NCBI GenBank assembly: GCA_014685065.1
Contig: GCA_014685065.1_3930.1
Length of the DNA stretch: 64,000 nt
Reading direction: 5' to 3' (one strand)
Origin: a phage
How positions within the stretch are numbered: position 1 is the first letter of the stretch; every line of letters starts with the position of its first letter. The translations under genes and the position numbers were made by a program. Below the pieces are notes generated by a model that worked only from the letters and a program-made list of their open reading frames with translations, did no database searches and was not told where the DNA came from. Of the stretch, positions 4,068 through 56,805 are shown one piece after another.

Positions 4068-6302
4068 CTAAACACCACAACCCTCGCAATAAGCATCTTG
4101 CAGTGCAGATTTACCTACACCAATGCGACTGTTAAGGTAGTACATGGTTTTCATACCTACCGAGTTGGCATAAATCATGTACTTCAAAGCTTGAGCCAAT
4201 GATACCTTCTTAGCTTTTGCGTAGTCAACATAGAAATCTGAAGAGATAGCTTGACCAGTGAACTTTTGAACAATTGCATAACAATCAATCAGGTCAAAGG
4301 TGTCAATACCCCAAGCAATTTCATATACATACTTCAACTCTTCATAATCTGGAACAATAAACAGTACGTTACCAGTTGCAGACTTTTTAGTTAAAATAAA
4401 GTCACGAATTGGATACAAGCCATTTGTCGTATTGGTTGCCAGTGAAGAACTCTCATTAGGCATGTAAGCTTCTAATACAGAGTTTCGGATTCCACCATTT
4501 TCTTTGATACGTTGTGCTAAGTCATCCCAATCATATCGTAGTTTTGCATCATGCTTTTCATCAATCTTCTTGTTAGCTGTCTTTGGAGGAACCCAGCCTT
4601 CGGGATACTTAGTGAACTTCATGTATTCTGGAACGCCACGCTCTTTAGCAAGTCTCAGCGAGGCTTCATGCAGATAGTAAGAGTGCATCTCTGCAAGTTC
4701 ATGAAGTTTCGTTTTACCTGCTCGTGAAGAGTAGTTCACGTAGTTCTTCGCAAGGTAATGAGCCACATTTGTAAGGCCAATCCCAACAGAACGACGCTTC
4801 TGAACATGGTTACGCATCGACGGATACGGATAATCCATAAGGTCAATAACGGAGTCAACCATTGCAAGAGCATAATAAGCAACGTCAGCGTATTCATCTT
4901 CTGAAATTCTCCCTGCAACCAAACTAGCTAGGAAGCAAAGAGCTACCTCACCATCCTCTTTCACAGCATCATCTCTGTAAAGGTCTGTCTCTTTCTCAAA
5001 GCCGTACACTGGCAACACAATTTCCATACAAAGATTTGACATCTTCAAAGGCTCTTTAAATGGTGTATGTGTGTTTGCATTATTCGTGAAGAATGGGTAC
5101 ACACGGCCTGTTGCATAACGCTGCTGGATAAACAGTTTAGCAATTTCACGAGCCTTTACTCGTCTGTGCTTAACACCTGAATGCACTGCGTGACCAACTG
5201 CCATAGCAAACTCATCAGCAGATGCTGTGTAGAACATGTCATAGAGTTTTGGTGCATCTTTGTAAGAGAATAGCAACCAATCTGTATCATACTGAACACA
5301 CTGCCAGAAATAATCGTTTGTGCCGAATGAGTAGTCCATCTCATTAATACGTTTAGAAGGAACCGTTGTAGGGTGCTTCAAACGCAGTAAATCTTCAATC
5401 TGCGGGTCTAGAGCAGTGTAGAAGTTATTAGCTGAACCACCACGACTCTTCTGTTTGTTTGCCTCTACAGATGAGCGTACAAGCTTGTAATAAGGTAGTT
5501 TACCCATGTGCTCAATAGTATTTTGACGGATACCATCACCAATAGTACGAGTCTCCATCAGCATCCCAATGCCAGCTTGCTTTGTAGTCATATCATAAGC
5601 AACCTTTGCAGCAATACCGAGAGATTCGGCAGTGTCATTTGCCTTAATCAAACAGCATGACGCATAACCTGATTTAGTTGCTCTTAAACCGTTTAAATAT
5701 GGCGTAGGCGCGTTAATCTTCAGGTCAGATAGGTAAGTGTACAGCTTGATAACATCTTGCAGTCTACGGTGCTTTGGTTGCTTCTCAAAGGCTTTCATAG
5801 CCATACCCATGAACATAAATTGTGGTGACTCAAAAAGTCTTCCCGTTTTAATATCACGGATACCATACTTGTCTCTGAACTGTTTCAAGACTGCATAACC
5901 GTAAGAGATATCTTTTGAGTGCACAATGTAACCTTGCAGGTATTCAAGCTCTTCCTGTGAGTAGTCCATCTTCTCCCAAAGTCCTGCTCTCTCCATATTT
6001 TTAACGAAGGTAACCAGCGTAGGAACCTTAGTAAAGCCTCCAAAGGCTTCTTTGTAGATAATACCCAAAAGTAGCCGTCCAGCCATATCTGAGTACTCTT
6101 GAGTTTGTTTATCAACACAAACATCAATCATGGCTTGGTGCATCTCTTTTGTAGTGCAACCCTCATAGACACGTTTCATAGCTTCCATAGTGACTTCTGA
6201 CCAGATAATTCCACGTTTATCTGCCCATGATGCCCACTTATTCAGTCTTTCTGGGTCAAAGCTTACTACTGTACCGTTTGATTTTTTAATTGTCTTAATC
6301 AT
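4068..6302 (-). CDS. nrdA: ribonucleotide reductase class Ia alpha subunit
   Basis: 744 aa; N-terminal ATP-cone-like region; C-terminal tail cysteines (CEGCGV). Confidence 0.9.
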   Translation of the reverse strand: MIKTIKKSNGTVVSFDPERLNKWASWADKRGIIWSEVTMEAMKRVYEGCTTKEMHQAMIDVCVDKQTQEYSDMAGRLLLGIIYKEAFGGFTKVPTLVTFVKNMERAGLWEKMDYSQEELEYLQGYIVHSKDISYGYAVLKQFRDKYGIRDIKTGRLFESPQFMFMGMAMKAFEKQPKHRRLQDVIKLYTYLSDLKINAPTPYLNGLRATKSGYASCCLIKANDTAESLGIAAKVAYDMTTKQAGIGMLMETRTIGDGIRQNTIEHMGKLPYYKLVRSSVEANKQKSRGGSANNFYTALDPQIEDLLRLKHPTTVPSKRINEMDYSFGTNDYFWQCVQYDTDWLLFSYKDAPKLYDMFYTASADEFAMAVGHAVHSGVKHRRVKAREIAKLFIQQRYATGRVYPFFTNNANTHTPFKEPLKMSNLCMEIVLPVYGFEKETDLYRDDAVKEDGEVALCFLASLVAGRISEDEYADVAYYALAMVDSVIDLMDYPYPSMRNHVQKRRSVGIGLTNVAHYLAKNYVNYSSRAGKTKLHELAEMHSYYLHEASLRLAKERGVPEYMKFTKYPEGWVPPKTANKKIDEKHDAKLRYDWDDLAQRIKENGGIRNSVLEAYMPNESSSLATNTTNGLYPIRDFILTKKSATGNVLFIVPDYEELKYVYEIAWGIDTFDLIDCYAIVQKFTGQAISSDFYVDYAKAKKVSLAQALKYMIYANSVGMKTMYYLNSRIGVGKSALQDAYCEGCGV

Positions 6303-20543: not shown

Positions 20544-20550
20544 AAAGTTG

Positions 20551-20578
20551 TTGACATAGAAAATTTGGTGAGTATACT
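20551..20578 (+). promoter_or_regulatory. sigma70-like promoter
   Basis: TTGACA (20551-20556) - 16 nt - TATACT (20573-20578), upstream of the 20821 operon. Confidence 0.55.
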
Positions 20579-20608
20579 GAGCAGCATAAACCAACGGGTA
20601 CTCACCAG

Positions 20609-20647
20609 CATCACTTAAGGGTCTTCTAAGAGGGTTTTTAAGTGATG
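20609..20647 (+). repeat. conserved 39-nt hairpin element, copy 1
   Basis: CATCACTTAAgggtcttctaagagggtttTTAAGTGATG, 10-bp stem; near-identical copy at 22001-22039. Confidence 0.6.
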
Positions 20648-20718
20648 TTTGGTGTGGTGCGGTGGTGTGGGGTGTAGTTTTGTGTTGTTAGGTGTTGTTA
20701 GGTGAGGTATGGGTGGAT
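20648..20718 (+). repeat. G/T-only low-complexity tract
   Basis: About 70 nt composed almost entirely of G and T (ggtgtggtgcggtggtgtggggtgt...). Confidence 0.6.
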
Positions 20719-20744
20719 GGTAGTAGCCACGTTAAAAATCTACC
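20719..20744 (+). other. hairpin GGTAG-16 nt-CTACC (covarying with 22111-22136)
   Basis: Second copy has GGCAG/CTGCC with the same loop start tagcc...aaaaat. Confidence 0.5.
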
Positions 20745-21862: not shown

Positions 21863-21887
21863 AGCCTCTTCGGAGGCTCCTTTTTAA
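21863..21887 (+). terminator. rho-independent terminator
   Basis: AGCCTC-ttcg-GAGGCT hairpin followed by TTTTT. Confidence 0.6.
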
Positions 21888-21904
21888 AAGGTCTTTAAAC
21901 AGGG

Positions 21905-21965
21905 TCTTTTAACAAGGCTTAGCTTGGTTAGGTATGGTAAGGTGGTGTTTGGTGTTGTAAGGTAT
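21905..21965 (+). repeat. G/T-only low-complexity tract
   Basis: gcttggttaggtatggtaaggtggtgtttggtgttgtaaggtatggg. Confidence 0.55.
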
Positions 21966-22000
21966 GGGTAGTTAATCGGAGCTACATAAAAATTCGATTA

Positions 22001-22039
22001 CATCACTTAAGAGTCTTTTAAGAGGGTTTTTAAGTGAGG
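22001..22039 (+). repeat. conserved 39-nt hairpin element, copy 2
   Basis: CATCACTTAAgagtcttttaagagggtttTTAAGTGAGG. Confidence 0.6.
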
Positions 22040-22107
22040 TGTGGCACGGTAATGTTAGGTAGGGTCAGGTCAGGTCAGGTGAGGTAAGGTAAGGTAATGT
22101 ATGGAAG
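22040..22107 (+). repeat. G/T-only low-complexity tract
   Basis: Contains (caggt)x3 and (aaggt)x2 repeats. Confidence 0.55.
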
Positions 22108-47686: not shown

Positions 47687-49288
47687 TCAACGTCTAAGCC
47701 CCTCATATGGGTTTCCTCTCACTAAATCTGTGTGAGCACCCATTGATGGTGGCTTGAATAATTTAACTTCGTTAAGACTGTTGAAAGCATCACTGGTAGC
47801 ATCCACTTGGTCATCTTTAGTTTTACCGTCACCACAAAAGCCTTCAAGTTCTTGAAAGTAAGCTTCATTCCAACTACCTCTCAAGACTTTTACAAGTCCA
47901 GCTTCAGAAGCAGCAGAAAATCCCGCAAAGCGGGTAACTTTATCTTTATTTGTTGGTTTGGCTCTTGCTCGATAACCTTTCTCGGCAAGTTTCCTGATGA
48001 GGGATGTTGCGTAGGATTTACCAGCAGCGCCTGGGTCTTGAGGGATAAAAATACCAGTTCGCTTACCGTCACTTTCAGCAGTCAAATTAATTTGTGTTTC
48101 GACTCCAGAGGGTCTATCTCTAAATCTTACTACATCAATGATATAATAGCAACCGTCTTTTTTAGATTTACCCATCTTAACACCTGCTGTCCAGTCTGGA
48201 TTAGGGTTAATCTCAGATGGTAAAGTTGCTGCTAAGTCCCATGCTCTAACATCAAATACATCTTCTGGGAGTGAATCAACAATTTCACACCATTGTCTTT
48301 GCCAATAGTTTGAACCTTCTGCACGAGCCTTCCAGTTACCGAAACGAAGTCTTGCAACGTTTACAGGAGTGTTGTTTTCCAACTTACCACGGTACTTAGG
48401 CTCTAAGAAGTCAAGGATTGGGTTATCATCAATCGTACCAGAAATAAAGGTGTATGTTTGAGGAATCTCAAGGGGGAACATTTCAAGAATCTTGTCTCTC
48501 TCCCAATCAGAAACCATCACGCCATCGTGCATTACATACCAACGAATACGACCACATTTTTCAGGGTCTGGGTAGCCTTCTTCATCTAAGAATGGCTCTA
48601 CCCAATCGTAAATAAAGTGGTCTCTGTCTGGGTTCATGGAAATCTTCATGTATGAATCGCCTTCAGCACCAGAACGTAGACGGGTTTGTAGGTATGAAAT
48701 CTGTGAAGCAGAGAAGTGTGTACCTTCGTCAAAGTAAATAGCTGAGTATTCAATACCCTGATGACCTTCAGCGTGCTTTTCAAGTTCTAGGTAGGTAAAC
48801 TTGATAGTTGCCCCAGAAGGGAATGTGATAGTCATTTTCTGCTCGTGAGGAATCCCACCAAACTTACCAAATAGTTTCTTTGCAGCAGGCCATAAACCAC
48901 CTTGTAACTGTGTTGTATTTCGACGGAAATATACAGCATTATAGTTAGGGTCTTCAATAAATCTTAAAGAGTCCATTAACAATGCGGCAGTCTTACCAGC
49001 ACCAGCAGCACCACCATAGAGAACCAAGTCAGCATTAGTATTTAAAAAGACCTCTTGAGAACCCGGCTGAGGGGCTACATAGTTCTTATCAGTCATCAAT
49101 TTAAAGATAAGGCGAACTTGGTCTGGTGTGTATCTTAATAAAGTCAGAATTTGAGTTGGAAGGAATTTAGAGGGGTCTTTACCGAATGATTTAATAATTT
49201 CTTTTACTTCATCAGAAAGCCCCAACTCTCCAGCTAGGACTTTCCTAACATCTTCCACTCGCTTCTGCTTAACAGCATTTAAGTCCAT
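47687..49288 (-). CDS. terminase large subunit
   Basis: Start set at ATG 49286-49288 behind a GGAGG RBS (track start is TTG); Walker A GGAAGAGKTAA; about 533 aa. Confidence 0.85.
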   Translation of the reverse strand: MDLNAVKQKRVEDVRKVLAGELGLSDEVKEIIKSFGKDPSKFLPTQILTLLRYTPDQVRLIFKLMTDKNYVAPQPGSQEVFLNTNADLVLYGGAAGAGKTAALLMDSLRFIEDPNYNAVYFRRNTTQLQGGLWPAAKKLFGKFGGIPHEQKMTITFPSGATIKFTYLELEKHAEGHQGIEYSAIYFDEGTHFSASQISYLQTRLRSGAEGDSYMKISMNPDRDHFIYDWVEPFLDEEGYPDPEKCGRIRWYVMHDGVMVSDWERDKILEMFPLEIPQTYTFISGTIDDNPILDFLEPKYRGKLENNTPVNVARLRFGNWKARAEGSNYWQRQWCEIVDSLPEDVFDVRAWDLAATLPSEINPNPDWTAGVKMGKSKKDGCYYIIDVVRFRDRPSGVETQINLTAESDGKRTGIFIPQDPGAAGKSYATSLIRKLAEKGYRARAKPTNKDKVTRFAGFSAASEAGLVKVLRGSWNEAYFQELEGFCGDGKTKDDQVDATSDAFNSLNEVKLFKPPSMGAHTDLVRGNPYEGLRR

Positions 49289-49309
49289 TAAGCGCCTCCG
49301 CAAATAGAA

Positions 49310-49732: not shown

Positions 49733-49808
49733 TGGAGAATCCGAAGGGACTCGAACCCTTATAAACCTGTTTTGCAGACAGGCACATAGCCATTTCTGTC
49801 ACGGATTC
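49733..49808 (-). tRNA. tRNA-Cys (anticodon GCA)
   Basis: Hand fold: acceptor GAATCCG/CGGATTC, T-arm GGGTTCGAGTCCC, anticodon loop CTGCAAA, CCA encoded. Confidence 0.6.
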
Positions 49809-49812
49809 AAAT

Positions 49813-49905
49813 TGGAGGAAGATACCAGACTTGAACTGGTACACCGATTTCTCAGCTACTGGCAGTTTAGCAAACTGCTCCCTTACCTTTTAGGGTTAAT
49901 CTTCC
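49813..49905 (-). tRNA. tRNA-Ser (anticodon GCT), class II
   Basis: 93 nt; acceptor GGAAGAT/ATCTTCC, anticodon stem GCAGT/ACTGC with loop TTGCTAA, long variable arm. Confidence 0.55.
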
Positions 49906-49906
49906 A

Positions 49907-50641
49907 TTATTTCTGTAATGCGTTCTTCATTTCTGGTGTTGCAATAGTGTCAATTACACCAGTTTTACAGGCATCATCAAACCAGTCTGGTAAGATACCT
50001 GCTAAGAACCCATTGATATTCGTTTTAAGGTACTCTGCAATAAGGGCAGCTTCTTCTTCAATCATCTGCACAACTTCATCTGCATAAGCTGTAATCTTTG
50101 AGATACCTTCATTAATCTTACTGACAGCTTGGTTAGCTAAATCAGAAACAGTATCAAGACCCTTGTCAATAGCGTCTTGTAAGTCACTTAATACATCGTT
50201 AACACTCTCTAGTGTACTGTTAATCGTATCAATAGCTTTTTGACCATATTCTGTAGCAACACCCATAATACCACTGAACGGTGTACAACCAACTTGTTCT
50301 CCTGCTGCACCCATAACATTGGAATATCCATTTGCTACCTGCATACGTGATGAAAACTCATCAATAGATTTTTGACCGTAGTCTGTCAGGGTCTTAGTAG
50401 TTGCTGTAGTGCTTGTAAGGCTTGTTGTAAAGCTGTTTAGAAGGACTGTTGTAAGTCCAGCAGCAACAAGTTTCTCCTGCATTGTAGGGTCTGTTACAGA
50501 ACTAATAGAGCTTACAAGTGATGTAGAAGCAGCTACGGTTCCACCGAGAACTGCTGCACCAGTAATAAGTGGGTTAGAAAACCCTTTACCGGTTTTTAAG
50601 AGATTAAAAATCTCCTTACCTTGTTCTGTCATCTCTTTCAT
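49907..50641 (-). CDS. hypothetical Ser/Thr/Ala-rich protein embedded in the tRNA array
   Basis: Track ORF trimmed to an internal ATG so it does not overlap the tRNA at 50660-50734; about 244 aa. Confidence 0.4.
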   Translation of the reverse strand: MKEMTEQGKEIFNLLKTGKGFSNPLITGAAVLGGTVAASTSLVSSISSVTDPTMQEKLVAAGLTTVLLNSFTTSLTSTTATTKTLTDYGQKSIDEFSSRMQVANGYSNVMGAAGEQVGCTPFSGIMGVATEYGQKAIDTINSTLESVNDVLSDLQDAIDKGLDTVSDLANQAVSKINEGISKITAYADEVVQMIEEEAALIAEYLKTNINGFLAGILPDWFDDACKTGVIDTIATPEMKNALQK

Positions 50642-50659
50642 TAAGCACCTTTGAAATTG

Positions 50660-50734
50660 GTAGTCCAGTGGGATTTGAACCCTCTTCTCATGTTTTTCAG
50701 ACACGCGCTTTAACCATATAAGCTACTTGGACTA
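50660..50734 (-). tRNA. tRNA-Phe (anticodon GAA)
   Basis: Acceptor TAGTCCA/TGGACTA, T-loop TTCAAAT, anticodon stem CGTGT/ACATG with loop CTGAAAA. Confidence 0.5.
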
Positions 50735-50739
50735 TAAAT

Positions 50740-50815
50740 TGGGGTGACCTACGGGATTTGAACCCGTATAGACCATGTTCACAGCATGGGTCATTGCCAT
50801 TTATGATAAGGCCAC
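50740..50815 (-). tRNA. tRNA-His (anticodon GTG)
   Basis: Anticodon stem CCATG/CATGG, loop CTGTGAA; T-arm ACGGGTTCAAATCCCGT. Confidence 0.6.
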
Positions 50816-50846
50816 ATTTAAGGACTCTCGTAAGAACCCTTAGAAG

Positions 50847-50922
50847 TGGCAGCGGCATAAGGATTTGAACCTTAATAGGACAGCTTCAGAGACTGTTGCA
50901 TTGCCAGTTATGCTATACCGCT
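50847..50922 (-). tRNA. tRNA-Gln (anticodon CTG)
   Basis: D-stem GCAT/ATGC, anticodon loop CTCTGAA, T-arm TAAGGTTCAAATCCTTA. Confidence 0.55.
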
Positions 50923-50927
50923 AAATT

Positions 50928-51006
50928 TGGTACTCCATATCGGATTCGAACCGATACATAACACAGATTTTAAGTCTGGCCTCTCTGCCAATTGGAGTAA
51001 TGGAGC
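50928..51006 (-). tRNA. tRNA with Leu anticodon TAA but short variable arm (class I-like)
   Basis: Acceptor GCTCCAT/ATGGAGT, discriminator A, D-loop AATTGGCA, anticodon loop CTTAAAA, T-arm ATCGGTTCGAATCCGAT; aligns with the tRNAs at 51751 and 52329. Confidence 0.45.
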
Positions 51007-51008
51007 AT

Positions 51009-51084
51009 TGGCGGGGGATGTTGGAATTGAACCAACTTCTTCGATTTCAAAGACCGAGGTTTTAACCTTGTAAACTAATCCCCT
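51009..51084 (-). tRNA. tRNA-Gln (anticodon TTG)
   Basis: Anticodon stem TCGGT/ATCGA, loop CTTTGAA; T-arm GTTGGTTCAATTCCAAC. Confidence 0.55.
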
Positions 51085-51092
51085 TTAAATCT

Positions 51093-51650
51093 TTACTTTC
51101 TCAGTGGATGAATAAAGAATGCCAACATAACTCTTTCCCTTGAGAATGCTCTTTCTTCTGGGACAACACTTTTTAGTTTCCATCCAATATAAATTCTCCA
51201 GTAAAACTGTTTACCAAAGACTTTAATTGATGGGATAAAAGCGAATAATCCCCAAGCATTACTGTTCCACATTAGGAGATAACCTGTCTGATTATCTTCA
51301 GGGTCAGAACTTACGTTGATATTACCTTTCCACTTAGTAACATCTTTTACATCTCTTCCTAATACATGGTAAGAGAAGTTATAAGCTTTGTTTCTCCAGA
51401 GCCATCCGACTCTCTGCATGTAGACACCCAGCTTACCAATCTTTCTAATCTTAGCCCATCGTTCGATATGACCTTCGTCACCATCAATTGGATTGTCATA
51501 TGTCTCCATCCATCTAAATCCGAAAGGTAAGTGGCCTTTCTTCTCACTGTAAAATGGAACTACGAAAGGTGCTAAGATAACTGCTAAGGTTGCTGCTAAT
51601 GGTTCTAGCAAAGCTAGGAAAATCCATGAAGCATATTTTAAATATCTCAT
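51093..51650 (-). CDS. hypothetical membrane protein embedded in the tRNA array
   Basis: 185 aa; N-terminal TM segment (WIFLALLEPLAATLAVILAPFVV), Trp-rich body. Confidence 0.5.
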   Translation of the reverse strand: MRYLKYASWIFLALLEPLAATLAVILAPFVVPFYSEKKGHLPFGFRWMETYDNPIDGDEGHIERWAKIRKIGKLGVYMQRVGWLWRNKAYNFSYHVLGRDVKDVTKWKGNINVSSDPEDNQTGYLLMWNSNAWGLFAFIPSIKVFGKQFYWRIYIGWKLKSVVPEERAFSRERVMLAFFIHPLRK

Positions 51651-51669
51651 CTAAATAGCCTCTTTAAAT

Positions 51670-51745
51670 TGGCGCAGGATAAGGGATTCGAACCCCTATT
51701 AACAGCTTCGTAGACTGTTGCTCTATCCATTTGAACTAATCCTGC
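51670..51745 (-). tRNA. tRNA-Arg (anticodon ACG)
   Basis: D-arm GTTC...GAGC, anticodon stem ACAGT/GCTGT with loop CTACGAA. Confidence 0.55.
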
Positions 51746-51750
51746 AAAAT

Positions 51751-51828
51751 TGGTGTTCCAAGACGGATTCGAACCGTCACTAGTACAAGGTTTGAGCTTG
51801 CATCCTCTGCCAATTGGGATACTGGAAC
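51751..51828 (-). tRNA. tRNA with Leu anticodon CAA but short variable arm (class I-like)
   Basis: Acceptor GTTCCAG/TTGGAAC, discriminator A, D-loop AATTGGCA, anticodon stem GCAAG/CTTGT with loop CTCAAAC. Confidence 0.45.
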
Positions 51829-51829
51829 A

Positions 51830-51904
51830 TGGTACTCACTAAAGGACTTGAACCTTTTTCTTCATCTTGTAAGGGTGGTGTTTTACCATATAAACTAAGC
51901 GAGT
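51830..51904 (-). tRNA. tRNA-Val (anticodon TAC), tentative
   Basis: Good acceptor, D-arm (GTTT/AAAC) and T-arm (AAAGGTTCAAGTCCTTT); anticodon stem is weak, loop read as CTTACAA. Confidence 0.4.
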
Positions 51905-51910
51905 ATGAAA

Positions 51911-51992
51911 GAGGTCTGAAGTTGTGCCGCTAACTCAACTCCGTGGAATTTGTTACGGTCTTCAGTTGACACCAGCGGTCTTTCACTTGACC
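51911..51992. other. tRNA-sized structured element without canonical T-loop
   Basis: Terminal inverted repeat GAGGTC / GACCTC about 80 nt apart with internal hairpins (CCGT...ACGG); no GTTCRA motif on either strand. Confidence 0.35.
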
Positions 51993-51999
51993 TCTGAAT

Positions 52000-52076
52000 T
52001 GGTGCTGCTCACAGGACTCGAACCTGCATTTCCATCCTTACAAGGGATGTGTAATAGCCAATTATACGAAAGCAGC
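52000..52076 (-). tRNA. tRNA-Thr (anticodon TGT)
   Basis: Perfect anticodon stem CATCC/GGATG, loop CTTGTAA. Confidence 0.6.
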
Positions 52077-52082
52077 ATTGTT

Positions 52083-52157
52083 TGGAGCATCCAGAGGGAA
52101 TCGAACCCTCAACCTCAGTTTGGAAGACTGTAATTTTCCCGTTTAAACTATGGATGC
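52083..52157 (-). tRNA. tRNA-Gly (anticodon TCC)
   Basis: Acceptor GCATCCA/TGGATGC, anticodon loop CTTCCAA, T-arm GAGGGTTCGATTCCCTC. Confidence 0.55.
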
Positions 52158-52163
52158 ACTAAT

Positions 52164-52240
52164 TGGTGGAGAAGCAGGGAATTGAACCCTGTACTTAAGT
52201 TTGCAAAACTTATGTTTTAACCATGTAAACTACATCCCCA
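52164..52240 (-). tRNA. tRNA-Ala (anticodon TGC)
   Basis: D-stem GTTT/AAAC, anticodon stem TAAGT/ACTTA with loop TTTGCAA. Confidence 0.6.
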
Positions 52241-52245
52241 ATGTT

Positions 52246-52321
52246 TGGTACAGGTGGAGGGAATTGAACCCATCGTCTTACTGATTAAGAGTCAGCCGCA
52301 TAACCATTTTGCTACACCTGC
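52246..52321 (-). tRNA. tRNA-Lys (anticodon CTT)
   Basis: Anticodon loop CTCTTAA; paralogous in sequence to the Lys(TTT) tRNA at 53966. Confidence 0.5.
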
Positions 52322-52328
52322 ATTAATT

Positions 52329-52405
52329 TGGTACACCTAGAGAGATTCGAACTCACACTGAGCAGATTCTAAGTCTGCTGCCTCTACCAATTGGGCTATA
52401 GGTGC
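52329..52405 (-). tRNA. tRNA with Leu anticodon TAG but short variable arm (class I-like)
   Basis: Acceptor GCACCTA/TAGGTGT, discriminator A, D-loop AATTGGTA, perfect anticodon stem GCAGA/TCTGC with loop CTTAGAA, variable region only about 5 nt. Confidence 0.5.
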
Positions 52406-52663
52406 ATTAAATCTTTTTAGAGAACTTCTAAGAACCTAAGCAACAAGGTTCCACAACAAGCTGTAATAACCTTAGAAGCCCTCTAAAAAGACCTAATTTG
52501 GTCTTTGCATAGTCTTGTTTAATCCGGTGACTAGAACCTTTGGAGAGCTTGATATTATCTCTTCTCCGTGACACCTACTAGGTGCTTTACTGTGCGTGTA
52601 CGACAATACACGAGGGATACCAAAGCAACATCCGAATGAAGCTTGGCTTTAAATCTTATTAGG
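52406..52663 (-). ncRNA. structured non-coding spacer within the tRNA array (candidate small stable RNA)
   Basis: No ORF and no tRNA; several hairpins (CTTCTAAG...CTTAGAAG 8 bp; AGACC-taattt-GGTCT; CGTGTA-cgacaa-TACACG). Confidence 0.3.
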
Positions 52664-52751
52664 CGGTAAGTAAAGGAGTCGAACCCTCACCGTATCTCTA
52701 CAGTGGCAACTGTTTTCAAGACAGTTTGGCTACCATTAGCCGCTACCTACC
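52664..52751 (-). tRNA. tRNA-Ser (anticodon TGA), class II
   Basis: 88 nt; perfect anticodon stem ACTGT/ACAGT with loop CTTGAAA; long variable arm; CCA not encoded. Confidence 0.55.
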
Positions 52752-52764
52752 CCTAATAAGACTT

Positions 52765-52847
52765 TGGCATGGGACGGAGGAGTTGAACCACTTTGAAACG
52801 GTTTTGGAGGCCGTTGCTCATGCCTTAGAGTCTTAACATCGTCCCAC
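52765..52847 (-). tRNA. tRNA-Trp (anticodon CCA), atypical
   Basis: 83 nt; acceptor GTGGGAC/GTCCCAT, anticodon region ACGGC-CTCCAAA-ACCGT; T-stem imperfect. Confidence 0.4.
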
Positions 52848-52989
52848 ACTATAATTCGAAGCTTACCGTATTTTCACAACACTGTAAAGCCCCTTCTCAG
52901 ATTATTTACATGTTCTGGAAAACATGAGATACAGACCACCTCCTTACACGGAGACCCGATAAGGTCGTCTAAGCAATCTGCTAACTATT

Positions 52990-53066
52990 TGGCACACCCT
53001 ACAGGATTCGAACCTGTAACTAACGATTTAGAAGACCGTTGCTCTATCCAATTGAACTAAGGGTGC
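52990..53066 (-). tRNA. tRNA-Arg (anticodon TCT)
   Basis: Anticodon stem ACGGT/ATCGT, loop CTTCTAA; T-arm ACAGGTTCGAATCCTGT. Confidence 0.55.
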
Positions 53067-53313
53067 ATTAATCTTTAAAGACTCTCTTAGAAAGCCCTTA
53101 AAGATGCCCACCTTATTAATCATACCGTGGGCGAGTACGCCAAATTCTTTGATGAGGGATTGGAAGACCTCACTGGTGTTTAGCCTATCAAGCTACTGCC
53201 AGAAAAACATTGTCGTTTGCATTTATTTTAAATTTGCAAAATAGACGCTACGCAACGAAAACTAAGGTTACTATAAAGTGGTCACATCTCAATGTCAACA
53301 ACTTTATTGAAAT

Positions 53314-53389
53314 TGGTACTGTGAGAAGGATTCGAACCTTCTGCCTTTCGGTTATCAGCCGAATGCACATCCATATGTGCTTTCACAGC
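53314..53389 (-). tRNA. tRNA-Ile (anticodon GAT)
   Basis: Perfect anticodon stem TTCGG/CCGAA, loop CTGATAA. Confidence 0.6.
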
Positions 53390-53868
53390 ATTGTTACCCC
53401 TTCGTGTACCTCTCTGTGGCAATTTGCACACAGTAATACACACTTATCAACTTCAGACTTCATTACCTCTATAGAGAAGTGTTTTTGTCCTACTGTGAAG
53501 TCCTTTGTATTAGGGTCTAAGTGGTGAAACTCTAAAGCCTTTATGCACTTATTGTATCCACAAATTGAGCAACAACCACCTTTGTAATCAACTAAAACCC
53601 TCTTAAGTTTGTCACGAGACTTTTTAACGTGTTGTGACTTCGCTTTCTTTTCTTCATCGGGGTTTTTGTATTGTTTCAGAATACCATTTGAAATACATTC
53701 ATCACAATACTTTCTTGATTTTGGTGTTTGTTTTCCACATGAATGACAAGAGCCTTCTTGTCTTCTTTTTGGATGACTCTTGTTGTTTACCCTTGCAGCA
53801 CAAGAGCGTGAACAATATTTTCCGCCTTTAACGGCTTTGTTGTCACAATCTTTATTAGCACAAAACAT
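53383..53868 (-). CDS. HNH homing endonuclease
   Basis: Trimmed to ATG 53866-53868 (RBS GGTGA) so it does not overlap tRNAs; Cys-rich N-terminal region; C-terminal HNH motif EFHHLDPNTKD...CANCHREVH. Confidence 0.7.
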   Translation of the reverse strand: MFCANKDCDNKAVKGGKYCSRSCAARVNNKSHPKRRQEGSCHSCGKQTPKSRKYCDECISNGILKQYKNPDEEKKAKSQHVKKSRDKLKRVLVDYKGGCCSICGYNKCIKALEFHHLDPNTKDFTVGQKHFSIEVMKSEVDKCVLLCANCHREVHEGVTML

Positions 53869-53884
53869 AATATCACCAACGAAT

Positions 53885-53961
53885 TGGAGGTTCAGATGGG
53901 AATCGAACCCACATTCATAGGGCTTATGAGACCCCTGCATTACCTTATCTGCGACTGAACC
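53885..53961 (-). tRNA. tRNA-Met (anticodon CAT)
   Basis: Acceptor GGTTCAG/CTGAACC perfect; anticodon stem GGGGT/GCCCT, loop CTCATAA. Confidence 0.55.
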
Positions 53962-53965
53962 ATAT

Positions 53966-54041
53966 TGGTAGAAGTGGAGGGATTCGAACCCATCGCCTGT
54001 CAGATTAAAAGTCTGCCGCATCACCATTCTGCTACACTTCC
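53966..54041 (-). tRNA. tRNA-Lys (anticodon TTT)
   Basis: Anticodon loop CTTTTAA; T-arm ATGGGTTCGAATCCCTC. Confidence 0.5.
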
Positions 54042-54045
54042 ATTA

Positions 54046-54181
54046 AAATTATCTTTGTAGATAAGCTATCCAGACTTGCTTAAGGTCTGTAGCGATGTGC
54101 CTTGTTGGGTTTAAATCTAGAATTTACCCTTTCACTCTTTGTGGTCGCATACTCACAGGTAAGCTTAATAACTTATCTACA
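54046..54181. repeat. 19-bp perfect inverted repeat flanking a ~98-nt spacer
   Basis: aattatctttgtagataag (54046-54064) is the exact reverse complement of cttatctacaaagataatt (54163-54181); inner CAGAC...GTCTG hairpin. Confidence 0.55.
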
Positions 54182-54241
54182 AAGATAATTACCAGACCGT
54201 TGTTTATCATCTTAAGTGCTACCATTACACCAACTCGACAT

Positions 54242-54266
54242 CTGCCGAGTGAAGGAATCGAACCTT
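54242..54266 (-). other. tRNA 3'-half-like fragment (T-arm plus acceptor 3' strand only)
   Basis: Canonical GAAGGTTCGATTCCTTC T-arm followed by ACTCGGC-A, but no complementary 5' acceptor strand found within 120 nt. Confidence 0.3.
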
Positions 54267-54497
54267 CGCCTTTTCTTTACCGGAGAAATAGATTGTTTAA
54301 GTTTTGCTGTAAACGGTCTTCTGTAAATTTGTTGAGCCAGACCAAGTTTTAAATTTTCAAAATTAAATTGGCTTGAAATTTCATACATTCTTGCTGTATT
54401 TGGTCTTCTGCTCCTTTAAAGAATACTCGTAAGAACCCTTTAAGGGAGGGGCTAAATAGCCCTCTCAAAACATCATCTTGAAATACTTATTATAATT

Positions 54498-54574
54498 TGG
54501 CGGTTACGAAGGGATTTGAACCCTCATCATCTCCCGTGACAGGGGAGTATTTTAACCAGTTAAACTACATAACC
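54498..54574 (-). tRNA. tRNA-Asp (anticodon GTC)
   Basis: Perfect anticodon stem CTCCC/GGGAG, loop CTGTCAC; D-stem GTTT/AAAT. Confidence 0.6.
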
Positions 54575-54580
54575 TTTATT

Positions 54581-54668
54581 TGGTGTGCCGTGTAGGAGTC
54601 GAACCTACCGAGTCTCAATGACAAGGGATTTACAGTCCCCACCGCTACCATCTACGGGATAACGACAC
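54581..54668 (-). tRNA. tRNA-Tyr (anticodon GTA), class II
   Basis: 88 nt; anticodon stem GGGGA/TCCCT, loop CTGTAAA; long variable arm. Confidence 0.5.
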
Positions 54669-54737
54669 ATTTAATTTCTATTCAGGCTAAGGACTTGCAC
54701 CTTACAAATCGGTGAGCAATCGCTTCTCTCCTAAATT

Positions 54738-54814
54738 TGGCGGTTAGTCAGGGATTCGAACCCTGTGCCATTCGCTTAACAGGCGACCGCACATACCTTA
54801 TGTGCTTCCTAACC
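54738..54814 (-). tRNA. tRNA-Asn (anticodon GTT)
   Basis: Anticodon loop CTGTTAA; T-arm CAGGGTTCGAATCCCTG. Confidence 0.5.
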
Positions 54815-54891
54815 TTAATACATTGCCAGACCGTGTTTTTTCTTTTATCCGCAAAAAGTATTTTGTTGCTGAATACGGTCTTCTGCAAAAT

Positions 54892-54968
54892 TGGAGGCGG
54901 GTGCAGGAGTCGAACCTGCCGATACCATGCTAATGAGACATGTGAGACGCCCTTTCTCTATACCCGCA
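54892..54968 (-). tRNA. tRNA with anticodon CAT (Met or Ile2), tentative
   Basis: Anticodon stem CATGT/GCATG, loop CTCATTA (position 37 is T, unusual); 1-72 mismatch in acceptor. Confidence 0.4.
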
Positions 54969-55059
54969 ATTCTTAATGACCAGACCAAATCTCTTCTTTG
55001 TCCGATTTACCTTCAGATGAATAAGATTAAGTTTGCTGTAATTGGTCTTCTGTCAAAAC

Positions 55060-55137
55060 TGGCGTTCCAGAAGGGATTTGAACCCTCAAATATCCACTTT
55101 GAAAGAGTGGTGACTTTACCATTTTGTCTACTGGAAC
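55060..55137 (-). tRNA. tRNA-Glu (anticodon TTC)
   Basis: Perfect acceptor GTTCCAG/CTGGAAC and anticodon stem CCACT/AGTGG, loop CTTTCAA. Confidence 0.6.
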
Positions 55138-55144
55138 ATTAATT

Positions 55145-55224
55145 TGGTCTCCGTTGAAGGATTTGAACCCTCGACCCCTTGCTCCCAAAGCAAGTGCTGC
55201 TAAACCAAACTGAGCTAAACGGAG
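55145..55224 (-). tRNA. tRNA-Pro (anticodon TGG)
   Basis: Perfect acceptor CTCCGTT/AACGGAG and anticodon stem CTTGC/GCAAG, loop TTTGGGA with G37. Confidence 0.6.
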
Positions 55225-55342
55225 ATAAACTTTTCAAACTCTATGTAACCACTTTAACATTATTTTTTAGTGGTTGTCAAGAACTTTTTTAAAATATTTT
55301 TCAGTATCTTAGAAAAGCTCTCATTTCGTTTCTATGTAGAAC

Positions 55343-55371
55343 ATATTAAAGGGTATCAAACACATTGTCAA
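55343..55371 (-). promoter_or_regulatory. sigma70-like promoter reading into the tRNA array
   Basis: On the minus strand: TTGACA - 17 nt - TAATAT; lies inside a GGGTAT...ATACCC hairpin just downstream of the vWA gene stop. Confidence 0.55.
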
Positions 55372-55389: not shown

Positions 55390-56805
55390 TTACCAGATGT
55401 AACGGTCAATCATTACTGCTTTGAGCATTACGCTGATTGGGTCAAACTTCTCACCACCAAGCAGAGCTTTTAAAGTGGCTGGAGAGAACCCTGATACCAT
55501 TGCTACACCATTATCCTTAACAGATACTTCGCAAGTACCATTACGGTTTGCTAAGTACCAGAATACCAGTTGTGGCATTTTGTATCCAGCTTTTTTGTAC
55601 TTACTACGAATCGCTTCAAAGTTTGTACGACCATTAGCTCCATCAACCTGATTGAACTCCATATCAGAGAAGATAATAAGCTTACTTGGCATATCTTTCT
55701 GAGTCAAGTTGTTTCTCTTACCTGTTTCAAGAATGCGGTCAAAAGCTGCTTGTAAGTTAGTTGAGCCATATTCAACGTGTCGCATCACCTGACGATGACG
55801 GTTTCGTAAATCACCACTCAGTTCGATGAAGTGAGGGTTTGTCGAATAAACCATCAACTCATTCTTAAAGCAACCTGTATTGCGTTCTGCTACATACAAG
55901 GCAAGTGATACACCAATATCCAGAGCAGTAATGGAGCCAAAATTCACCCAAGACATTGAACTTGATACATCAGACATACACAAGATGTTTTCACCTTCTG
56001 CCATCCAGTTTGGTAGTGCTTTCCACTGCTCATTAGCAACATCTGCATTACCATACTTGACAGATTTAATCACATCGTATGGGTAAACAGCACCAGCGTT
56101 AATCTTAGTCTCACCTTTTGATAAGGACTCGATGTAAGCTTTGTAACGCTCTCCATCTTTACGGTTAAACAGTTTTTGGTAACGTGCAGCAGCAAGTGAA
56201 GGAATCTTACTGTAGTCAATCTTACCAAACTCATTAGCAGAGATTTTTTGCTCAACTGTATCAGATAGTGCAGACAACAGTGTGCGATACTCTTTCTCAC
56301 TCAAGTTTGCAAACTTGCAGAAACGTTTTACAAACTGTTTGTGACGTGGTTTTACTCGTGGTAACCACTTAGCTGCTAAACCTGCTGTTGCAGGGTCTAG
56401 TAAAGCTGCTTCTAAATGTTTGAAGGCATCTGTCTCGAAACGAGTACCTACAAAGATTTTGAAGTCATCAAAGCGACCAAGCTCTGCAATCTTATCCATA
56501 ATGCGAAGAACCTGCGTAGGCTCTAAAACTTTATCTTCAATCGCTTGAAGTAAAACAGTTCGGAAAGCTTTACGCTCACCCATACCTTCTCGTACATCTC
56601 GCATATGCAGTAAAATACGAACTGCAACATCAACATCCTCATGCAAAGCTTTGTAGAACAAGTCTGGTAAGATTTCTACATTGCTACGGCTGGAACCAGC
56701 AGCTTTGTAAAAGTCCACAAGAGCAGACATTGATGAAGTATGGTTTACAGCACCATTTTCAGTTCGACCTGCATGAAGGTGCGCATGTTTAAATAATTCG
56801 CTCAT
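55390..56805 (-). CDS. von Willebrand factor A (vWA) domain protein, possibly Ro60/TROVE-like
   Basis: 471 aa; C-terminal region has a MIDAS-like DxSxS motif (MSDVSSSMS) and later LIIFSDMEF; N-terminal half is helical. Adjacent to the tRNA array. Confidence 0.5.
   Translation of the reverse strand: MSELFKHAHLHAGRTENGAVNHTSSMSALVDFYKAAGSSRSNVEILPDLFYKALHEDVDVAVRILLHMRDVREGMGERKAFRTVLLQAIEDKVLEPTQVLRIMDKIAELGRFDDFKIFVGTRFETDAFKHLEAALLDPATAGLAAKWLPRVKPRHKQFVKRFCKFANLSEKEYRTLLSALSDTVEQKISANEFGKIDYSKIPSLAAARYQKLFNRKDGERYKAYIESLSKGETKINAGAVYPYDVIKSVKYGNADVANEQWKALPNWMAEGENILCMSDVSSSMSWVNFGSITALDIGVSLALYVAERNTGCFKNELMVYSTNPHFIELSGDLRNRHRQVMRHVEYGSTNLQAAFDRILETGKRNNLTQKDMPSKLIIFSDMEFNQVDGANGRTNFEAIRSKYKKAGYKMPQLVFWYLANRNGTCEVSVKDNGVAMVSGFSPATLKALLGGEKFDPISVMLKAVMIDRYIW

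Follow-up and report, generated by a model that had tools for sequence, protein, structure and literature searches.

The 64,000-nt stretch of phage DNA analysed here (the window; NCBI GenBank assembly GCA_014685065.1, contig GCA_014685065.1_3930.1) carries a large tRNA gene array, and the subject of this work is a short motif that recurs in the spacers of that array. ARAGORN places 26 tRNA genes at 49733-55224, all on the (-) strand. In megablast searches, the region is recognized as the tRNA array of Felixounavirus (Felix O1-like) phages, with matches in 329 phage records; the closest is Escherichia phage KEP3 (95.7%), and Felix O1 itself stands at 93.7%. The array is flanked on one side by an open reading frame (ORF) of 471 amino acids (55390-56805, (-) strand) and on the other by the large terminase gene (47687-49303, (-) strand). 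Ordinary inter-tRNA spacers are only 1-7 nt long and A/U-rich (e.g., AAUUAAU), the CCA end is encoded, and every longer non-coding spacer is a stem-closed folded unit. The array resembles beads on a string, in which tRNAs, Y-RNA-like elements, and other small RNA units with paired ends are joined by A/U-rich linkers of 1-12 nt (Table 1). The paper describing the Felix O1 genome does not mention a spacer hairpin element (PMC3185647).

Table 1. Motif-bearing hairpins and neighbouring RNA features of the tRNA array (window coordinates).
Feature	Position	Strand	Context and structure
Copy A	spacer 50816..50846, 31 nt	(-)	between tRNA-Gln(ctg) and tRNA-His
Copy B	54411..54448	(-)	CUCC-C-UUAAAGGGU-U-CU-UACG-AG-U-AUUCUUUAA-A-GGAG
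Copy C	53071..53105	(-)	diverged 16-bp hairpin AUCUUUAAGGGCUUUC-UAA-GAGAGUCUUUAAAGAU; families D17/D20, inverted repeat I18
Hairpin D	52406..52497, 92 nt	(-)	directly 5' of tRNA-Leu(tag); 27-nt arms 52406-52432 / 52471-52497
tmRNA-like RNA	53108..53262	(-)	own promoter 53298..53270; tag frame ANDNVFLAVA*
Stem-closed RNA module, ~145 nt	54047-54190	(-)	23-bp closing helix; 5' of tRNA-Lys(ttt)
Four Y-RNA-like elements	55057..54974, 54890..54820, 54415..54331, 54328..54186	(-)	shared plan; copy B abuts 54415..54331

At the heart of the repeat is an exact 15-mer, CTCGTAAGAACCCTT, which occurs twice on the (+) strand (50827-50841 and 54426-54440). An earlier, sequence-only reading of this DNA had described two near-identical 22-mers here; the repeat is present, with coordinates that needed a shift of one base (to 50825-50846 and 54425-54446). 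A partial copy proposed at 53085-53105 was borne out in diverged form, with 76% identity over 25 nt; a covariance model built without copy C finds this copy independently (53071-53105; 19.2 bits, E-value 0.03). The other proposed partial copy, at 52424-52436 (actually 52425-52437), was missed by the covariance model and turned out to be a segment of a separate, larger hairpin. This hairpin D holds the sequence cttctaagaacct, and its position and its linker, AAAGAUUUAAU, are analogous to those of the motif copies, but it belongs to a different sequence family. The sites had also been described as lying in spacers just upstream of tRNAs or genes; on the transcribed strand, three of them are found directly 5' of tRNA-His, tRNA-Arg(tct), and tRNA-Leu(tag), and the copy at 54426 lies 5' of a Y-RNA-like element, which is not a tRNA.

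Enrichment relative to shuffled sequence is detectable but weak: with up to three mismatches allowed, there are five matches against 1.2 expected, and one shuffle in 100 reaches five. In addition, a first-order Markov model of the window predicts about 4.8 repeated exact 15-mers by chance, so that sequence statistics alone are weak. The case for the motif rests instead on structure and on conservation across genera. Neither a mismatch search nor the covariance model found the motif elsewhere in the 64-kb window, late genes included. Outside the array, the model returned only weak look-alikes, the best of them at 21883-21913 (21 bits), and a genome-wide motif family was accordingly rejected.

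On the transcribed (-) strand, each copy of the motif is a stem-loop with the core GGGUUCU-UACG-AGAGUCC, which includes G.U pairs, and only 0-5 nt lie between each hairpin and the 5' end of the tRNA or Y-RNA-like element that follows. The spacer that holds copy A reads CUUC-UAAGGGUUCU-UACG-AGAGUCCUUA-AAU; its hairpin (50819-50842) has 10 bp with a tandem G.U/U.G, a minimum free energy of -8.0 kcal/mol (z-score -1.7), and the 3-nt AAU as the only sequence before the 5' end of tRNA-His. Copy B keeps the CU-UACG-AG core of copy A, here carried by a longer A/U stem of about 15 bp that includes two 1x1 loops. It comes immediately after a G+C-rich hairpin (about 54449-54462) and immediately before the adjoining Y-RNA-like element, whose closing stem is overlapped by the outer GGAG of the copy. 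Copy C (-17.4 kcal/mol, z-score -4.1) is found after the terminal hairpin of a transfer-messenger RNA (tmRNA)-like RNA and is separated from tRNA-Arg(tct) by the 4-nt linker UAAU. Hairpin D has a helix of ~30 bp (-38.2 kcal/mol, z-score -6.9). The tails that follow the hairpins are AAAU, GGAGCAG, and UAAU. A classification as C-G-closed UNCG-tetraloop hairpins was rejected, since the UACG loop of copies A and B, and of a further copy in Erwinia phage phiEa21-4, is closed by U-A, and the loop of copy C is UAA.

Hairpins A, B, and C persist when they are folded together with their neighbouring units, which for copy A are both flanking tRNAs. The (-) strand folds much better than the (+) strand at copy C (-17.4 vs -5.7 kcal/mol) and hairpin D (-37.4 vs -25.4 kcal/mol), and slightly better at copy A. 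Moreover, the G.U pairs of the core on the (-) strand correspond to A.C mismatches in (+) strand RNA.

The sequence-only reading had suggested an internal promoter, a processing site, or a protein-binding site. A host or phage-specific promoter that would drive the downstream tRNA could be imagined from the placement of the motif upstream of genes on the coding strand, but this proposal is largely refuted and we give it next to no weight. The copies contain no -35/-10 hexamers, and none of the 13 sigma-70 sites detected between 49600 and 55500 (12.5 expected) overlaps them on the (-) strand. The three strong promoters of the array, of the TTGACA-N17-18-TAnnnT type, lie elsewhere on this strand (55371..55343, 55280..55251, and 53298..53270). 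One weak (+) strand match (50778-50807), which begins antisense to tRNA-His and reaches the edge of spacer A, is at background level. In addition, only 0-5 nt separate the motif from mature RNA 5' ends, and the motif lies upstream of no other gene in the window. Finally, Felix O1 is reported to have only sigma-70-like promoters, at early and late genes, and no gene for an RNA polymerase, a specificity factor, or a polymerase-modifying product (PMC3185647).

Nor do the copies correspond to other known elements. No intrinsic terminator (a G+C-rich hairpin followed by a U run) was matched at them, neither ARAGORN nor the Rfam tRNA models called a tRNA or tRNA pseudogene there, and no Rfam family was found even at permissive thresholds. 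A decayed T arm was rejected because the similarity is limited to AAGGGUUC and the remainder is unable to form a T arm. An Rfam MIR473 match on hairpin D was attributed to chance. Similarity to the rrn/lambda boxA antitermination signal, UGCUCUUUAA, was confined to the Sf19 form of the hairpin at site C, where it is unconserved and lies within the stem. Antisense pairing with host tmRNA was likewise discarded, as duplex energies with Escherichia coli ssrA were no better than those of shuffled sequence. An exact scan of IMG/VR for GGTTCTTACGAGAG returned, beyond Ounavirinae contigs, only chance matches in unrelated sequence.

Comparison among phages shows that the stem-loop is maintained. In 249 of 251 records from Felixounavirus, Mooglevirus, and Suspvirus, site A is of constant length, and no filled/empty polymorphism was found there. 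Among 16 distinct Ounavirinae sequences, 2 of the 31 columns of this spacer vary, against 17 of 76 and 6 of 76 in the flanking tRNAs, and by this measure site A is as constrained as its neighbours. Copy B is conserved in the same three genera. The substitutions observed are G.U to A-U (copy A of garuso, copy B of most genomes) and G.U to G-C (copy B of FelixO1). When the seven distinct sequences of copies A, B, and phiEa21-4 were aligned, 90.5% of cells were paired and four pairs had changed on both sides, compared with 36-63% paired in slid-partner controls. On this comparative evidence, the motif qualifies as a conserved structured RNA element.

The conservation extends to Kolesnikvirus. Erwinia phage phiEa21-4, whose close relative phiEa104 shows about 70% identity in the terminase, has a single copy, whose 16-nt apex is identical. 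This copy lies directly 5' of tRNA-Leu(UUG) and is immediately preceded by the orthologue of the tmRNA-like RNA found before copy C in the window. Diversity within this genus is represented by relatives that are all at least 98.8% identical to phiEa21-4.

The hairpin is absent from Hafnia phage SarahDanielle. There, GAAGGUUCUC and GAGAGUCUUC, with the tandem G.U/U.G, form the ~25-bp closing helix of a ~190-nt module located directly 5' of tRNA-Arg(tct). It follows that the two strands act by pairing with each other. This module (L129 7340-7523, (+) strand) is homologous to the stem-closed module of the window in the form it takes in Mooglevirus and Suspvirus (local alignment scores of 59-61 vs a shuffled maximum of 48), and the two are closed by different helices; closing helices can thus be interchanged between modules.

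The Hafnia arrangement also bears on the hypothesis of a DNA-level site, in which the imperfect inverted repeat GGACTCT-CGTA-AGAACCC would be bound by a dimeric DNA-binding protein or targeted by one of the HNH homing endonucleases of the array. The symmetry of the repeat, the insertion of HNH genes at several junctions in relatives, and the folding of copy B and of the phiEa21-4 copy, which is no worse on the (+) strand than on the (-) strand, would all suit such a site. However, the half-sites match only through G.U-type pairing and are conserved in the Hafnia phage despite lying ~190 bp apart. Furthermore, the points of HNH insertion are linkers beside other hairpins and not the motif, which is found nowhere else in the 64 kb. 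We consider a DNA-level role very improbable.

Junction variability was also observed at other sites. In phage mistaenkt (L130 7841..7381, (-) strand), an HNH homing endonuclease gene lies exactly between hairpin D and tRNA-Leu(tag), and the 8-nt linker GATTTAAT is duplicated at both of its ends. In Felix O1 (L002 4875..4790, (-) strand), the place of hairpin C and tRNA-Arg(tct) is taken by another hairpin, by a tRNA-like sequence that is unannotated, and by a gene for an HNH endonuclease. The tRNA-like sequence lacks a D arm and carries a UCU anticodon loop together with the alanine-type acceptor features G3.U70 and A73. In other genera, site C is occupied by a different hairpin (AACAUUCUAAAG...CUUUAAAAUGUU).

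The borders of the variable segments coincide with hairpin-tRNA junctions, and the motif copies could be relics or recombination junctions devoid of an RNA-level function of their own, that is, empty closing stems left behind by module loss or crossover points for module shuffling. A helix that is empty elsewhere is filled in the Hafnia phage, different types of hairpin and genes for HNH endonucleases take one another's place at the same junctions, and similar A/U-rich hairpins are present at other intergenic boundaries (21883-21913 in the window and 5025-5058 in the Hafnia phage). The promoter-early stem-loop (PeSL) cassettes of T4-type phages offer a proposed analogue of such shuffling (PMC4122927), in that they too involve repeated short stem-loops that border exchangeable modules in a hypervariable region. 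PeSL elements contain an early promoter, whereas copies A-C have none, and membership in this class was rejected for that reason. Site A, moreover, is nearly invariant in length and sequence in ~250 genomes from three genera, no filled/empty polymorphism is found at site A or at site B, and the pairing-preserving substitutions indicate selection on the helix. The evidence favours RNA-helix selection over recombination, and the relic hypothesis seems unlikely.

The interpretation that we favour, with a probability of about one half, is that the motif is the apical helix of a conserved stem-loop in a polycistronic tRNA/small-RNA precursor and acts as a processing or stability stalk that marks module boundaries. 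Among the roles first suggested, a processing or protein-binding site is compatible with the data and preferred, provided that it is placed at the RNA level, as the apex of a stem-loop. The analysis shows the sequence of the element, its fold, position, and conservation, and its lack of a promoter or terminator; the nucleases at work and the consequence for RNA ends are inferred. The feature itself is real, conserved, and RNA-level, and represents an ordinary type of spacer stem-loop in a new setting. The motif hairpins would be the smallest beads of the string, used where a tRNA or Y-RNA-like element is not directly preceded by a folded unit; alternatively, the motif helix would serve as the closing stalk of a larger module.

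In E. coli, RNase E depends, when it cuts precursor tRNAs, on an adjacent structured unit accommodated by the duplex-binding groove, and a need for structured elements in tandem may be general (Clarke et al., 2023, PMC9841416). In view of this dependence, the stem-loop is proposed as the structured determinant located beside the A/U-rich linker at which host RNase E would cleave the tRNA precursors. The array resembles the E. coli RNase E/RNase P substrates in its combination of a folded unit and a short, single-stranded, A/U-rich linker within a multi-tRNA transcript in an enterobacterial host; the difference is that the structured unit is a neighbouring tRNA in those cases (PMC9841416) and a predicted dedicated mini-hairpin here. 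The same hairpin-linker arrangement would also offer a single-stranded leader to RNase P. The preference of RNase E is R-N-cut-W-U-U, which linkers such as AAAGAUUUAAU resemble.

After cleavage, the hairpin would be left at the 3' terminus of the upstream fragment, which it may shield from 3' exonucleases. This predicted role is similar to that of REP-type 3'-stabilisers and other exonuclease barriers, which are stable stem-loops without a U tract retained at the 3' end of an upstream RNA after endonucleolytic cleavage. Unlike REP elements, the motif lacks the REP consensus, is phage-specific, and is very small. Cleavage of the longer stalks by RNase III would provide an alternative entry route. 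An RNase III cut has been reported in the transcript of the T4 tRNA cluster, and in RNase III stalks such as the stems that flank 16S/23S rRNA or the hairpins of phage T7 early mRNA, complementary strands likewise enclose a stable RNA or make up a hairpin between cistrons. Long helices delimit or enclose small RNAs in the Hafnia phage, in hairpin D, and in the stem-closed module. RNase III requires a minimum of about one helical turn and usually about two, and the helices measure 10 bp (A), about 15 bp (B), 16 bp (C), about 30 bp (D), and about 25 bp (Hafnia phage); the 10 bp of copy A and the mismatched 15 bp of copy B fall short of classical substrates of about 20 bp.

Several points weigh against the stalk interpretation. 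The covariation comes from only 7-8 distinct sequences, and the structure was derived from these same sequences. Copy A has just 10 bp (-8 kcal/mol, z-score -1.7) and the upstream tRNA is only 4 nt away, so that the need for a stand-in structured unit is not obvious at this site. Strand asymmetry is mixed, in that the whole hairpin of copy B and of the phiEa21-4 copy folds slightly better on the (+) strand. Lastly, the identity of the apical 16 nt between genera exceeds what a purely structural stalk would need.

This last point keeps alive a model in which a specific factor recognizes the RNA: the apex GGUUCU-UACG-AGAGUC, with its tandem G.U/U.G, would be a sequence-specific binding site for a phage or host protein, and the hairpin would thereby bring a factor such as a dedicated nuclease, a chaperone, or a modification enzyme to the boundaries of modules. 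Felixounavirus site A and Kolesnikvirus share all of the 16-nt apex while their flanks are unalignable, the strands of the helix are kept in the Hafnia phage, and conserved G.U pairs and a UACG tetraloop are typical recognition features. On the other hand, a candidate for the protein was not identified; phiEa21-4 and the Hafnia phage, both of which have the helix, lack the Ro60-like gene found next to the array, and a tie between the motif and this gene was rejected on the same grounds. In addition, copy C and the hairpins found at the same site in Mooglevirus, Suspvirus, and FelixO1 differ in sequence, so that sequence is inessential at some sites. We regard specific recognition as a tentative alternative, on the unlikely side.

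The motif is one fairly ordinary element among several small RNAs, and these unannotated neighbours are more interesting than the motif itself. The tmRNA-like RNA that precedes copy C is unannotated and lies in the 247-nt spacer between tRNA-Ile and tRNA-Arg(tct). Its helices covary, and its predicted tag has variants in phiEa21-4 (ANDAQFLAVA*), in Ackermannviridae (ANDNTFLAVA*), and in Klebsiella phage BUCT610 (ANEEMYLAVA*). About 500 phage records match it in blastn searches, including Ounavirinae, Ackermannviridae, and Klebsiella phages of ~46 kb, and it is also located in comparison sequences L004 (4140..3965), L126, L127, and L128. ARAGORN does not call it as a tmRNA, Rfam tmRNA models give only sub-threshold matches with no family covering it, and no tRNA-like domain is detectable in it. 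No description of such a tag RNA was found in the literature searched.

Immediately upstream of the array, the ORF at 55390-56805 encodes a protein with DUF2828 and DUF7788 domains. Its AlphaFold model (pLDDT 85.6, pTM 0.85) has ten best PDB matches that are all Ro60, Rsr, or TROVE proteins (E-values from 2.5e-8 to 5e-6, TM-score up to 0.66), and the product is predicted to adopt a Ro60/TROVE+vWA fold. What the four Y-RNA-like elements have in common is a lower stem that covaries, a 5' AGA-AGACC that is conserved and pairs with a 3' GGUCU-G, and the sequence (U/A)(U/A)CAGCAA. The elements are present in the three genera with the Ro60-fold gene and absent from phiEa21-4 and the Hafnia phage, both of which lack it. 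The longest element, 54328..54186, has the layout of YrlA, with a stem, a T arm, an acceptor-like hairpin, and a D arm (compare PMC4201824), and in its acceptor-like hairpin, of 7 bp, covariation is seen between genera. For the related phage Bas63, a preprint had raised the speculation that its 'tRNAs' include some Y RNAs (PMC11482910).

With these neighbours in mind, the hairpin can also be imagined as a sequence-recognised handle that would mark and release the modules of an RNA operon aimed at host translation and RNA quality control, and as a 3' handle for production or delivery of the tag RNA. Such an operon would comprise the tRNAs, the four Y-RNA-like elements with their Ro60-fold protein, and a tag RNA without a tRNA-like domain. 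The hairpin directly follows the tmRNA-like RNA in both Felixounavirus and Kolesnikvirus. We consider this possibility decidedly doubtful.

Other features of the array and of the window were noted on the way. The spacer between tRNA-Thr and tRNA-Val (51905-51999, (-) strand) is a stable 95-nt structure (-30.7 kcal/mol, z-score -2.9), and the Asn-Tyr spacer (54669-54737, (-) strand) resembles a decayed tRNA with the T-arm-like sequence AAGGUGCAAGUCCUU. The tRNA-His gene has U instead of G at position -1 (window 50815, (-) strand) and a C73 discriminator, so that the usual bacterial G-1 is not encoded; its Felix O1 orthologue is flagged as a pseudogene in RefSeq. An unannotated tRNA-like sequence at 52850..52766 on the (-) strand (GUGGGACG...GGUUCAACUCC...CGUCCCAUGCCA), not called by the tRNA finders, combines an acceptor-like stem of 8 bp with an anticodon-like loop that is oversized; a weak promoter-like site (52877..52848) is found just upstream of it. 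A short conserved element at 52976..52925 on the same strand (UUAGACGACCUUAUCGGGUCUCC-GUGUAAGGAGGUGGUCUGUAUCUC) is also present in L002, L003, and L130, its core GGAGGUGGUCUGUAUCUC is present in L004, and its first hairpin covaries between genera. Outside the array, intergenic regions on the (+) strand (20549-20720, 21880-21970, and 22000-22100) consist of a promoter or terminator, followed by A/U-rich hairpins and then by long tracts rich in G/T, among them GGTGTGGTGCGGTGGTGTGGGG and AGGTCAGGTCAGGTCAGGTGAGGTAAGG; one of these hairpins, CACUUAAGGGUCUUCUAAGAGGGUUUUUAAGUG, is duplicated at 20611 and 22003.

Taken by itself, the motif adds modestly to the description of these phages, as a conserved hairpin of the spacers that probably directs RNA processing or outlasts it. 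It is more valuable as an entry point, for it shows that the long spacers of Felix O1-type arrays, far from being junk, are a succession of conserved, folded small RNAs whose boundaries are defined. With these boundaries known, the neighbouring Y-RNA-like and tmRNA-like elements become directly testable. The same knowledge is relevant to the engineering of phages that are therapeutic candidates, in which tRNA maturation would have to be kept intact.

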